IMG/VR virus record: IMGVR_UViG_2526164667_000039
Strand: one strand, 5' to 3'
Length of the DNA: 9,671 bases
Source: a virus
Taxonomy: Duplodnaviria; Heunggongvirae; Uroviricota; Caudoviricetes
Each line of letters begins with the position of its first letter. The first letter of the stretch is position 1. Under the pieces are notes generated by a model that saw nothing but the letters and a program-made list of their open reading frames with translations, did no database searches and was not told the DNA's origin. Shown piece by piece: positions 2,444 through 4,924 of the stretch. Both the position numbers and the translations under genes were made by a program.

Positions 2444-3076
2444 TCATTGATTCACCTCCTGCCTGTCGTCCGGCATTCGCTCACTACAGCTTATCCAACC
2501 ATCCGGAGTTACCGGAGAATTGCCATTTACCAAATCAGCTCGAACATATAGCGTGTCATCATGGTGCTGATTGTGGCTGCACCACGTTAATTCGCTTAAC
2601 TCGCCATCTTCTGGCCATACTCCAGCTGTTTGCAGCCAGATATGGGCTGGCGCATCCTGGCAAGGTGTATTAACTGGAAACTTGTAAGTTTGGCTTACAG
2701 GTTGGCTACCCTGAAGCATGGCGGCGCGGCAGGCGTTCCAGCCATCTGCGTAACAATCTCTGTGTGTCTTGAAATATGTCACCGCCCTTGGTACATCGTT
2801 TACGTCTATTTCATCCGGCACAACCGGCGCAGGTGAGTCAGCATAAACAGGAATAACGTCCGGTTGCTCTTTATTGCTTTCATCCGTTAAAGCCCAGAAT
2901 AATTTCCCGGCCGGATGTTTGAAAATATAAGCAACTGGTTCTGCTTCCAGCGATGCCAGAGCAATTCGTGCCAGTTCTTCCGCTTCTTCTGCTGGCAGTA
3001 CAACGTTGCTACCAGGTCCGTATGTTTCGCGCCACTGCTTGATTGTCAGTAGTCGCTCTTTGGTAATAGTGATCAT
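2444..3076 (-). CDS. Hypothetical prophage accessory protein (gene B), 210 aa, now separated from its native upstream context by IS2
   Basis: The ATG at 3076-3074 lies 7 nt from the IS2 left end. Removing IS2 plus one duplication copy shows this ATG overlaps the reconstructed TGA of the upstream gene (ATGA) and sits 8 nt after a GAAGGA RBS. The C-terminal WISCSERMPDD weakly resembles the start of a DUF551-type motif, but the protein ends 8 aa later. Confidence 0.6.
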   Translation of the reverse strand: MITITKERLLTIKQWRETYGPGSNVVLPAEEAEELARIALASLEAEPVAYIFKHPAGKLFWALTDESNKEQPDVIPVYADSPAPVVPDEIDVNDVPRAVTYFKTHRDCYADGWNACRAAMLQGSQPVSQTYKFPVNTPCQDAPAHIWLQTAGVWPEDGELSELTWCSHNQHHDDTLYVRADLVNGNSPVTPDGWISCSERMPDDRQEVNQ

Positions 3077-3077
3077 G

Positions 3078-3082
3078 CCGCG
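3078..3082. repeat. IS2 target-site duplication, left copy (CCGCG)
   Basis: CCGCG directly precedes the IS2 left inverted repeat, and an identical CCGCG follows the right inverted repeat at 4414-4418. A 5-bp duplication is characteristic of IS2. Confidence 0.85.
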
Positions 3083-3173
3083 TAGACTGGCCCCCTGAAT
3101 CTCCAGACAACCAGTATCACTTATTTAAGTGATAGTCTTAATACTAGTTTTTAGACTAGTCATTGGAGAGCAG

Positions 3174-3539
3174 ATGATTGATGTCTTAGGACCGGAGAAA
3201 CGCAGACGGCGTACCACACAGGAAAAGATCGCAATTGTTCAGCAGAGCTTTGAACCAGGGATGACGGTCTCCCTCGTTGCCCGGCAACATGGTGTAGCAG
3301 CCAGCCAGTTATTTCTCTGGCGTAAGCAATACCAGGAAGGAAGTCTTACTGCTGTCGCCGCCGGAGAACAGGTTGTTCCTGCCTCTGAACTTGCTGCCGC
3401 CATGAAGCAGATTAAAGAACTCCAGCGCCTGCTCGGCAAGAAAACGATGGAAAATGAACTCCTCAAAGAAGCCGTTGAATATGGACGGGCAAAAAAGTGG
3501 ATAGCGCACGCGCCCTTATTGCCCGGGGATGGGGAGTAA
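3174..3539 (+). CDS. insC: IS2 transposase OrfA (InsC), 121 aa, helix-turn-helix DNA-binding subunit
   Basis: [56 protein letters not shown]... is recognised as IS2 InsC. The ORF track begins at an upstream alternative start (3129), but ATG 3174 is the known start. Confidence 0.9.
3491..3497 (+). promoter_or_regulatory. A AAA AAG slippery heptamer for programmed -1 ribosomal frameshifting that produces the InsCD fusion transposase
   Basis: AAAAAAG sits in the insC zero frame (codons GCA AAA AAG) at the start of the insC/insD overlap, and insD is in the -1 frame. This is the standard IS3-family arrangement. Confidence 0.7.
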
Positions 3540-4402
3540 GCTTAGTCAGCCGTTGTCTCCGGGTGTCGCGTGCGCAGTTGCACGTCATTCTCAGACGAAC
3601 CGATGACTGGATGGATGGCCGCCGCAGTCGTCACACTGATGATACGGATGTGCTTCTCCGTATACACCATGTTATCGGAGAGCTGCCCACGTATGGTTAT
3701 CGTCGGGTATGGGCGCTGCTTCGCAGACAGGCAGAACTTGATGGTATGCCTGCGATCAATGCCAAACGTGTTTACCGGATCATGCGCCAGAATGCGCTGT
3801 TGCTTGAGCGAAAACCTGCTGTACCGCCATCGAAACGGGCACATACAGGCAGAGTGGCTGTGAAAGAAAGTAATCAGCGATGGTGCTCTGACGGGTTCGA
3901 GTTCCGCTGTGATAACGGAGAAAAACTGCGAGTCACGTTCGCGCTGGACTGCTGTGACCGTGAGGCACTGCACTGGGCGGTCACTACGGGCGGCTTCAAC
4001 AGTGAAACAGTACAGGACGTCATGCCAGGAGCGGTGGAACGCCGCTTCGGCAACGAGCTTCCGGCGTCTCCAGTAGAGTGGCTGACGGATAATGGTTCAT
4101 GCTACCGGGCTAATGAAACACGGCAGTTTGCCCGGATGTTGGGGCTTGAACCGAAGAGCACGGCGGTGCGGAGTCCGGAGAGTAACGGCATAGCAGAGAG
4201 CTTCGTGAAAACGATAAAGCGTGACTACATCAGTGTCATGCCCAAACCAGACGGGTTAACGGCAGCAAAGAACCTTGCAGAGGCGTTCGAGCATTATAAC
4301 GAATGGCATCCGCATAGTGCACTGGGTTATCGCTCGCCACGGGAATATCTACGGCAGCAAGCCAGTAATGGGTTAAGTGATAACAGGTGTCTGGAAATAT
4401 AG
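3497..4402 (+). CDS. insD: IS2 transposase OrfB (InsD), 301 aa, DDE catalytic domain
   Basis: ...[33 protein letters not shown]...WCSDGFEF...[49 protein letters not shown]... is recognised as IS2 InsD. It is in the -1 frame relative to insC and overlaps its 3' end. Confidence 0.9.
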
Positions 4403-4924
4403 GGGCAAATCCACCGCGTTTCCTTCTTTCTTATTAACAATTACACCGTCATATATTTCATTAAGGTGCCCTCTCAACTCCATGCGCCTTAATGCAGATA
4501 ACATGTAATCGCATTCAACCTGCTTATTTCCAGTAAATGGCTTATCGTCAGGTTTACCCCAACAGCAATTACCCTTGGGCCACCCATGTACTTTCCGTAC
4601 TCTTCCGTTAACAACGTGAAGTAATCCCCAGCCAGGTGGTAAATCCTCAATTGAAATAATTCCCGGCTCACTAATAAAGAATCGCCAGTCGCCCATTCCA
4701 AGAGACGGATTTTTACGAAAACGCTTTTTTCTATCTGCCAACAAGTCAGCACGAGAACACTTCGCCTCTATCAGGCATGATGCTGAATTTCTGAATCCCA
4801 TAGCATCTGGCTGTTCTCCGGTACTGGTTACAGCTATAAAGCGGTCATGAAAACAAACCTTGAACCCGTTGCGCTTAAGGAACTTGTACGCAATCTGACA
4901 GAGTTCGCGGTGTGTTAACGCCAT
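4373..4924 (-). CDS. Putative PD-(D/E)xK nuclease-fold protein (gene A), 183 aa; the last 13 residues ([13 protein letters not shown]) are encoded by the IS2 right end
   Basis: ATG 4924-4922 is preceded by AAGGAG with a 6-nt spacer and lies 1 nt after the upstream TGA. The motif ...[22 protein letters not shown]... follows the PD-x(n)-ExK pattern of restriction-endonuclease-fold nucleases. The reconstructed native C-terminus is ...KKEGNAA-stop (171 aa). The ORF track starts at an upstream TTG (4945). Confidence 0.55.
4414..4418. repeat. IS2 target-site duplication, right copy (CCGCG)
   Basis: Identical to 3078-3082 and immediately abuts the IS2 right end. Confidence 0.85.

Follow-up and report, generated by a model that had tools for sequence, protein, structure and literature searches.

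An IS2 copy in the Shine-Dalgarno–ATG spacer of a prophage gene, and the question of insertion at gene junctions

Introduction

Do insertion sequences (ISs) choose the junctions between genes, or do they arrive there by chance? This question is raised by a lambdoid prophage that occupies fimD in a small lineage of E. coli and part of which is contained in the window, i.e., the whole stretch of 9,671 nucleotides analyzed here. Its leftward early operon has the order yfdR, three Ea22-like ORFs, gene A, gene B, DUF4222, xis, int, and an IS2 copy separates gene A from gene B. The first-pass annotation placed this copy exactly at the stop/start overlap of both genes and pointed to an IS100-like element at a further junction of the same operon, implying a bias of ISs for such positions. 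The wider question of whether ISs favor gene junctions was already raised genome-wide (PMC13548323) and a single locus cannot settle it. The insertion itself is already present in public genomes. Its importance is small: it is a tidy and resolved example of an IS that landed behind a ribosome-binding site and ahead of the start codon, so that the upstream gene is nearly complete and the following one stranded.

Identity and boundaries of the IS2 element

The element and its parts are as follows.

3083..4413, plus strand: IS2 element (IS3 family, IS2 group), 1331 bp
3078..3082, no strand: target-site duplication, left copy, CCGCG
4414..4418, no strand: target-site duplication, right copy, CCGCG; the pentamer is present once in the empty site of strain DEC5D
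3083..3124, plus strand: left inverted repeat (IRL, 42 bp), from the alignment of IRL and IRR
4373..4413, plus strand: right inverted repeat (IRR, 41 bp), read on the minus strand as the 13-residue end of gene A
3174..3539, plus strand: orfA (121 aa), NCBIfam NF006928 'IS2 repressor TnpA'
3491..3497, plus strand: predicted A6G programmed -1 frameshift site AAAAAAG within the overlap of orfA and orfB
3497..4402, plus strand: orfB (301 aa), NCBIfam NF006918 'IS2 transposase TnpB'

The element at 3083-4413 belongs to IS2, as judged from its length, ends, duplication, reading frames, NCBIfam models and nucleotide identity, and the first-pass assignment to IS2 thus holds. Exactly 1331 bp, beginning and ending with TAGACTGG...GCAAATCCA, lie between the two CCGCG repeats, both of which are present at the positions noted before; with the IS ends fixed, a perfect repeat of 5 bp would arise by chance with a probability of 1/1024. 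Aligned with gaps, the two ends reveal imperfect repeats with the conserved blocks GCCCC...TCCAGAC...TATCACTT, and the lengths agree with those reported for IS2, 42 bp on the left and 41 bp on the right (PMC3299598). Both proteins score above the IS2-specific cut-offs of their models (orfA: 276.4 bits, cut-off 229; orfB: 709.5 bits, cut-off 597). The A6G frameshift site is described for IS2 (PMC3299598), and the PGAP annotation of the same insertion in strain DEC9B carries the remark 'programmed frameshift'.

Over the full 1331 bp the copy is 97.3–97.8% identical to copies annotated as 'IS3-like element IS2 family transposase', one of them carried by an O16:H48 strain; the identity to K-12-type IS2 is 97.5%, and strain F2_407_2_2 harbors a 100% identical IS2 copy at another locus. 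With IS2 of E. coli K-12 it shares the length of 1331 bp, the imperfect 42/41-bp repeats, the 5-bp duplication, the arrangement of orfA and orfB with the A6G site and proteins above the IS2-specific cut-offs; it differs by a divergence of ~2.5% and by its PGAP label, which reads only 'IS3 family transposase'. Within orfB, the CA at 4026-4027 changes a Leu to Pro compared to the same IS2 copy in three other genomes.

The empty site and the point of insertion

The genes on both sides of the element are the following.

4373..4924, minus strand: present form of gene A (183 aa), native residues 1-170 plus the 13-residue IS2-derived tail
2444..3076, minus strand: gene B (210 aa, DUF551-containing, Pfam PF04448), with an intact ATG at 3076-3074
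4421..4426, minus strand: GAAGGA, former Shine-Dalgarno (SD) sequence of gene B, now 1.3 kb away from the gene B ATG

Removal of the IS2 copy and of one repeat from the window yields 800 bp that are 100% identical, in one piece, to E. coli O55:H7 strain DEC5D. This comparison with an IS-free allele bears out the earlier prediction that the uninterrupted gene A frame ends in GCG GCA TGA with the gene B ATG overlapping this TGA: the reconstructed junction reads GAAGGAAA[CGCGG]CATGATC on the minus strand, gene A ends with AAC GCG GCA TGA, and its translation from DEC5D has the C-terminus ...KKEGNAA*, followed by the overlap with the gene B ATG. Since this natural empty site exists, the origin of the IS2 copy by transposition, with its 5-bp duplication, is certain.

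The IS-free allele reads GAAGGAAACGCGGCATGA, i.e., a stop/start overlap with the SD sequence lying within the upstream coding region. The native SD sequence of gene B is GAAGGAAAC with a predicted pairing energy of -5.7 kcal/mol, and the spacing of GAAGGA to the start codon (8 nt) is good. In phage P7 the homologues Upf89.0 (171 aa) and Upf89.5 are likewise annotated with a 4-nt overlap. Judged from this arrangement, gene A and gene B form an ATGA-overlap pair with an architecture expected to allow translational coupling.

The insertion is indeed a junction insertion; however, the word 'exactly' is off by 1 nt, as the duplicated pentamer ends 1 nt before ATGA. The element thereby lies in the spacer between SD sequence and ATG and within the last three codons of gene A, 1 nt from the start codon of gene B and 2 nt from the stop codon of gene A. 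The translation confirmed that gene A reads through into the right end of IS2 for 13 codons: from the native 171 residues the last Ala is lost, 13 IS-encoded residues are gained and the stop codon TAA is used at 4375-4373. Gene B has lost GAAGGA, as was noted before, and the last base of IS2 (3083) is at position -7 relative to its ATG (3076). What remains upstream is an SD-like GGGGG (3091-3095) in the complement of IRL, with a calculated anti-SD pairing of -9.4 kcal/mol, ending 14 nt before the gene B ATG.

A second insertion and the decay of the prophage

6948..8900, minus strand: IS100 copy, 1953 bp, istB frameshifted (context)
6943-6947 and 8901-8905: target-site duplication of IS100, CGTAA

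The IS100-like element is 99.7% identical to copies annotated as IS100/IS100kyp and shares with IS100 (IS21 family) istA/istB and the 5-bp duplication, but it measures 1953 bp instead of 1954 bp and its istB is split into two overlapping frames. Its insertion point, 10 nt ahead of the yfdR stop codon, parts GGAG from the ATG (6939) of the following ORF, and as a consequence of the insertion yfdR lost 3 residues and gained 12. The IS100-free site is found in DEC5D and three other genomes. The IS2 insertion occurs in 3 of 5,426 complete genomes (DEC9B, F2_407_2_2, 7_33_46A), and because these three have the IS2 copy but not IS100, both insertions are independent. The earlier description of two independent insertions at junctions, each leaving the upstream ORF nearly intact, was thereby substantiated for both elements.

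Among the 5,426 complete genomes no IS-free copy of the exact module DUF4222 / 210-aa DUF551 / gene A / Ea22 was found; the closest IS-free allele is that of DEC5D, in which the left module is different. In the three complete genomes with the insertion, gene A carries a stop codon in place of Q38, and in the window the integrase contains a 1-nt deletion causing a frameshift, next to the later IS100 insertion. These genomes document a stepwise decay of the fimD-integrated prophage, with IS2 first, followed either by the gene A nonsense codon or by IS100 and the integrase frameshift.

Chance, target preference or selection

Both insertions of the operon are in SD-ATG spacers and at most 10 nt from an upstream stop codon. 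In the IS-free window, 2.9% and 4.4% of the positions are within 5 nt and 10 nt, respectively, of the stop codon of a long ORF, and the joint chance of the two hits would be ~0.1% had the pattern been pre-specified, which it was not. IS2 occupies roughly 23,300 places in the 5,426 complete E. coli genomes. Positions of further copies were surveyed at 50 other unique IS2 sites (33 on phage contigs and 17 chromosomal) and 13 IS100 sites; perfect 5-bp repeats flank 50 of 69 other unique full-length IS2 sites.

The survey favors an ordinary insertion. Long ORFs contain 35 of the 50 unique IS2 sites (~70%) with 38 expected, none of the 13 IS100 sites is within 10 nt of a stop codon, and in a related prophage IS2 lies in the body of an Ea22-like gene. 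IS2 was also described to bind target DNA non-specifically, with a possible preference for curved DNA (PMC3299598). This is likely an ordinary IS2 insertion that reached the junction by chance, with no need for dedicated targeting. IS2, which transposes via a figure-of-eight and a minicircle, would have inserted by the copy-out/paste-in route into the leftward early operon of the lambdoid prophage, with the transposase making staggered cuts around CGCGG. This pentamer follows the gene B ribosome-binding site, precedes the gene B ATG and falls within the three final codons of gene A. The insertion would have persisted by drift in the decaying prophage. Surviving IS copies may in general be weakly inclined to adjoin gene ends, and this may contribute. 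Opposed to pure chance are the two spacer hits within one operon and the phage contigs, on which 7 of 33 IS2 sites are within 20 nt of a stop codon compared to 2.0 expected (P 0.003, three thresholds tried, uncorrected).

The same phage-contig sites might be taken to suggest that IS2, and perhaps other copy-out/paste-in ISs, mechanistically prefer translation-initiation regions or gene junctions, the preferred target being AT-rich, purine-rich and intrinsically bent DNA beside a GC-rich pentamer. On the phage contigs 5 of 33 IS2 sites also have an SD-plus-start site at a distance of at most 20 nt, compared to 1.8 expected (P 0.03), and several sites resemble the one studied here: in L095 IS2 duplicates the SD sequence GGAGT 7 nt before an ATG, in L104 it lies 2 nt before an ATG and in L074 2 nt after an ATGA overlap. 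The IS2 site is locally AT-rich (38% GC within ±25 nt; window median 48%). Lewis et al. found the target sites of IS2 to adjoin intrinsically curved DNA (PMC3299598). Moreover, a survey in ISME J 2026 reported an excess of IS copies 1–3 bp from CDS ends for 28 of 30 IS families (PMC13548323). Nevertheless, such a preference is unlikely to explain the position. The enrichment is small and threshold-dependent: over all 50 unique IS2 sites only 4 are within 10 nt of a stop codon (1.7 expected, P 0.09), and no enrichment near ORF ends is seen in the 17 chromosomal IS2 or the 13 IS100 sites. In addition, most IS2 sites are inside ORFs, no consensus is visible in the duplicated pentamers of the 50 sites, extant copies mix target choice with survival, and gene callers may snap CDS ends to IS boundaries. 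Local composition was also considered as a common cause of both insertions in the operon and discarded, the IS100 site not being AT-rich (46–50% GC).

In a narrower form, IS2 would have a structure-driven, intrinsic preference for the spacer between ribosome-binding site and start codon at tight phage gene junctions, which IS100 may share. If this were true, insertions would cleanly uncouple neighboring genes while sparing their coding bodies, and both hits in the operon would be examples. We regard this as quite improbable; the 13 IS100 sites give no sign of a spacer preference. Altogether, near ORF ends IS2 is enriched at most 2–3-fold, marginally and on phage contigs only, and strong evidence for a targeting of gene junctions by IS2 was not found; the bias implied by the first-pass annotation is not established.

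Selection was considered as well. The insertion spares the upstream products and would silence gene B together with xis and int, which could ground the prophage or remove a harmful product and thereby favor the lysogen. In accordance with this, both ISs are upstream of xis and int in one transcription unit and leave the upstream ORFs almost whole; selection is known to shape the location of ISs between genes (Plague 2010, PMC2942039), and since IS copies are generally depleted inside operons (PMC13548323), the persisting ones may be special. Like the copies in these surveys, the IS2 copy is near CDS ends (start codon at 1 nt, stop codon at 2 nt); it differs from the depletion of intergenic ISs in operons by being inside an operon, but this belongs to a prophage with weak constraint. 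Selection is nonetheless a very improbable cause. Gene A was later nonsense-mutated in the three complete genomes and the integrase frameshifted in the window, a pattern resembling neutral decay rather than preservation of gene A. Furthermore, selection fails to explain the exact position, because the downstream genes would be silenced just as well from any other position in gene A or gene B.

Predicted effects on expression

For the insertion by chance that we prefer, the consequences for the downstream genes can be predicted. Gene B is probably poorly translated, because GAAGGA and the coupling to ribosomes terminating on gene A are lost and only the IS-borne G-run, 14 nt off, is left. Gene B is now placed behind 1331 bp of antisense IS2, the RNA of which contains more C (389) than G (318) and in places consists of 40% C and 21% G. 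Before reaching gene B, transcription started at the phage promoter would have to pass ~1.29 kb of antisense IS2 that is C-rich and not translated. Unless antitermination by the phage intervenes, this would favor Rho-dependent polarity on gene B and the genes behind it, DUF4222, xis and int. In DEC9B, no convincing ORF for an N-like antiterminator is present in the 720 bp upstream of yfdP. IS2 insertions with polar effects were reportedly described in 1974 for the gal operon and phage lambda by Saedler et al. and by Adhya et al. The classical cases and this locus have in common an IS within a polycistronic unit and a stretch of IS RNA, longer than 1 kb and untranslated, parting downstream genes from their promoter; here, the insertion at a stop/start overlap splits no coding body, and the polarity is predicted only.

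IS2 is able to create hybrid promoters; one at ampC was reportedly described by Jaurin and Normark in 1983. Gene B might likewise be activated by an outward or hybrid promoter of IS2, as in the classical 'turn-on' mutants. Abutted IS2 ends were shown to form the strong promoter Pjunc (PMC3299598). Pjunc, however, is directed from the right end to the left end, placing the outward promoter element at the right end, whereas gene B is next to the left end and points away from it. The promoter scan revealed no sigma-70-like promoter facing outward from the left end toward gene B, and the sole promoter-like site on the minus strand is 1.1 kb upstream and within chance expectation. Activation of gene B is thus exceedingly improbable.

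The products of gene A and gene B

Gene A is a homologue of P7 Upf89.0 and matches only PHROGs of unknown function (PHROG 9263/631); Pfam, NCBIfam, PADLOC and the PDB sequences gave no match, and the single-sequence AlphaFold model (pLDDT 44.7) is too low in confidence for a fold search. By our own reading of its sequence, gene A contains a putative PD..ExK-like motif (QPDAMGF...LIEAKCS). Gene B is annotated by PGAP as 'DUF551 domain-containing protein' (WP_000628753.1) and has no NCBIfam or PADLOC assignment. In two alleles on P1-like plasmids, extra DNA is located inside the DUF551 gene and not at the junction of gene A and gene B.

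Identity and target of the IS2 insertion

The element at window 3083-4413 is IS2. It comprises 1331 bp, starts with TAGACTGGCCCCC and ends with GGGGCAAATCCA, agrees with published IS2 in length, 42/41-bp repeats and target handling (PMC3299598), and its termini align as the known imperfect repeats. IS2-annotated copies, one of them in an O16:H48 strain, match it over the full length with 97.3-97.8% identity. Moreover, OrfA and OrfB reach 276 bits with the 'IS2 repressor TnpA' model (cut-off 229) and 709.5 bits with the 'IS2 transposase TnpB' model (cut-off 597), respectively. 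The first-pass annotation described the insertion accurately and well, and its coordinates were all correct in a sequence check.

Features of the IS2 insertion
2444-3076, minus strand: gene B, with its ATG six bases past the IS2 left end
3078-3082 and 4414-4418: copies of the CCGCG duplication on either side of IS2
3491-3497: A6G frameshift heptamer in IS2
4373-4945, minus strand: gene A ORF, ATG at 4924, entering the IS2 right end

Deletion of IS2 and one CCGCG copy gives GAAGGAAA-CGCGG-CATGATC on the minus strand, in which the gene A frame reads AAC GCG GCA TGA and the TGA is overlapped by the gene B ATG. An 800-bp reconstruction centred on this junction is matched at 100% and in a single piece by the chromosome of DEC5D, an E. 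coli O55:H7 strain, and at about 97-99.7% by phage P7, many P1/P7-like plasmids and Stx phages. The ATGA overlap predicted for the IS-free allele is thus found in nature: gene A of DEC5D is translated as an intact protein of 171 residues with the C-terminus NAA, and the P7 homologues Upf89.0 (171 aa) and Upf89.5 are annotated as overlapping by 4 nt. The insertion had been placed exactly at this overlap. The duplicated pentamer ends one base short of the ATGA; it falls in the spacer that separates GAAGGA from the ATG of gene B, and at the same time in the three final codons of gene A, so that the position was off by one base while the junction reading stands.

At window 4026-4027, IS2 carries CA, compared with TG in the same insertion of three other genomes (OrfB Leu to Pro). 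A second locus of one of these, F2_407_2_2, holds a copy 100% identical to the window IS2, a hint that copies of IS2 may have undergone gene conversion.

Consequences for gene A and gene B

Transposition with a 5-bp duplication exchanged the C-terminus of gene A, which retains 170 of its 171 residues and gains 13, and physically separated gene B from its own Shine-Dalgarno (SD) site and from the gene A stop codon. The gene B ATG is intact despite IS2. The native SD GAAGGAAAC, with good spacing and -5.7 kcal/mol with the anti-SD, now lies 1.3 kb away, and the G-run CAGGGGGCC of the IS2 left end (-9.4 kcal/mol with the anti-SD) ends 14 nt ahead of the ATG. An SD at 14 nt from the ATG is too distant for efficient initiation. 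Translation of gene B would be expected to be strongly reduced.

Furthermore, leftward phage transcripts would include about 1.29 kb of untranslated RNA antisense to IS2. Such a C-rich segment (389 C vs 318 G, with stretches at 40% C and 21% G) would favor Rho-dependent polarity, to which gene B, DUF4222, xis and int would all be exposed. Polarity caused by IS elements is reportedly suppressed by lambda N antitermination, a finding ascribed to Adhya et al. in 1974; no obvious N-like ORF was present in the 720 bp upstream of yfdP in DEC9B. Activation of gene B by IS2 is the opposite outcome and is unlikely, as a scan of the IS2 left end returned no promoter-like site facing gene B and the known outward promoter element of IS2 is at the opposite (right) end (PMC3299598).

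A second insertion and the question of junction bias

The second insertion is IS100.

Features of the IS100 insertion
6948-8900: IS100 copy, 1953 bp, 99.7% identity to annotated copies
6943-6947 and 8901-8905: CGTAA duplication flanking IS100

Its empty allele reads TATCGGAG-TTACG-CACATGCGCATGAATG on the minus strand. With GGAG on one side and the ATG (6939) of the ORF that follows on the other, the pentamer falls 10 nt short of the yfdR TGA. As proposed in the first-pass annotation, both insertions are at junctions and spare the upstream ORF: gene A loses one residue and gains 13, and YfdR loses its three C-terminal residues (TCA) and gains twelve.

Without its ISs, the window has a long-ORF stop within 5 nt of 2.9% of its positions and within 10 nt of 4.4%. 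Had the pattern been predicted, two such hits would arise by chance in about 1 of 1000 cases, but it was noticed post hoc. For a survey, phage contigs and species-representative genomes were scanned for exact matches and full-length IS2 copies collected; 50 unique sites, each flanked by a perfect 5-bp duplication, were retained and their empty sites rebuilt.

IS2 sites near gene junctions; the null is all positions within 1 kb of the insertion site, P values are uncorrected across the thresholds tried and gene calls are crude, the SD-plus-start test being independent of them
All 50 sites, within 10 nt of a stop: observed 4, expected 1.7, P 0.09
All 50 sites, within 20 nt of a stop: observed 8, expected 2.9, P 0.007
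33 phage-contig sites, within 20 nt of a stop: observed 7, expected 2.0, P 0.003
17 chromosomal sites, within 20 nt of a stop: observed 1, expected 0.9, P 0.59
All 50 sites, in long ORFs: observed 35, expected 38
Phage contigs, within 10 nt of SD plus start codon: observed 3, expected 1.1, P 0.10
Phage contigs, within 20 nt of SD plus start codon: observed 5, expected 1.8, P 0.03
Chromosomal sites, within 5-20 nt of SD plus start codon: observed 0, expected 0.3-0.7, P 1.0

There is no strict targeting of junctions. Of the 50 IS2 sites, 35 are in long ORFs, and none of 13 IS100 sites, for which no bias was seen, is within 10 nt of a stop. What holds of the suspected junction bias is a weak excess near stops in phage contigs. 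This is at most a weak tendency, already reported, and may stem from annotation, from survival or from the choice of target. Binding of IS2 to its target DNA is non-specific, perhaps with a preference for curved DNA (PMC3299598); selection was held responsible for the non-random intergenic placement of ISs (Plague, 2010; PMC2942039); and a 2026 survey reported excess copies 1-3 bp from CDS ends for 28 of 30 IS families and found ISs to be depleted within operons (PMC13548323).

Other IS2 copies are at gene starts in the IMG/VR phage contigs L095, L104, L074 and L052. The L095 copy duplicates the SD (GGAGT) 7 nt ahead of the ATG, the L104 copy is 2 nt ahead of the ATG, and two phage-contig copies are 2 nt past it, this ATG being part of an ATGA overlap in L074. 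In a related prophage of E. coli 2015C-3121 (L195, 4131-6201), an IS2-type element lies in the middle of an Ea22-like gene annotated as two fragments.

The window IS100 differs in length (1953 bp vs 1954 bp), and its istB (7014-7797) is read in two overlapping frames of 58 aa and 212 aa. Judged from its sequence, this copy is probably without a working helper ATPase. Just downstream, a 203-aa ORF (6328-6939, minus strand) has no Pfam match, and its sole RefSeq annotation is that of a short, partial pseudogene; it shares the C-terminus RKGGNQ with the adjoining downstream Ea22-like ORF (5651-6364).

Prophage context and order of events

The window corresponds to the left arm of a lambdoid prophage that sits in fimD.

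Prophage features
Minus strand: yfdR, three Ea22-like ORFs, gene A, gene B (DUF551), DUF4222, xis and int
387-1259 and 1292-1672, minus strand: split integrase ORFs

The insertion is routine and already present in public complete genomes, annotated as transposase: DEC9B, F2_407_2_2 and 7_33_46A carry it identically, with 99.9% identity to the window, without the second IS and with an intact integrase (428 aa). Codon 38 of gene A (window 4813) is CAG (Gln) in the window and DEC5D and TAG (stop) in these three genomes. Because the insertion is common to all four and the later changes differ, IS2 came first, and the gene A knockout in the three genomes came after it. The insertion was followed either by the gene A nonsense mutation or by IS100 and the integrase frameshift. 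The latter is a 1-nt deletion in a T-run at about 1307, which may be genuine decay or a sequencing error in the homopolymer. Such a series of events is what prophage decay usually looks like. No IS-free copy of the exact module combination was found in 5,426 complete genomes.

Window 1-339 is a 5' fragment of fimD, the type 1 fimbrial usher, and in DEC9B and the two other genomes fimD is broken by the same prophage directly after fimC. Presumably this lineage has no active type 1 fimbriae.

Functions of gene A and gene B

Gene A has no match in Pfam, NCBIfam, PADLOC or, by sequence, the PDB, and belongs to PHROGs of unassigned function; for gene B only a short DUF551 match was obtained. Nothing suggests a particular biological meaning of uncoupling the two genes. 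Residues at about 36-57 of gene A (window 4750-4820; QPDAMGF...LIEAKCS) resemble a PD-(D/E)xK nuclease motif, a reading for which profiles gave no support and for which the single-sequence AlphaFold model (pLDDT 44.7) is too poor for use.

According to RefSeq/PGAP, the initial 179 nt of gene A are a 'frameshifted' pseudogene (window 4746-4924; sequences L001, 6728-6906, and L002, 10814-10992), even with the 171-aa ORF intact as in DEC5D, and the P7 authors annotated the whole ORF as Upf89.0. The label is likely an artefact of the reference model, a 58-aa PHROG family matching residues 1-55.
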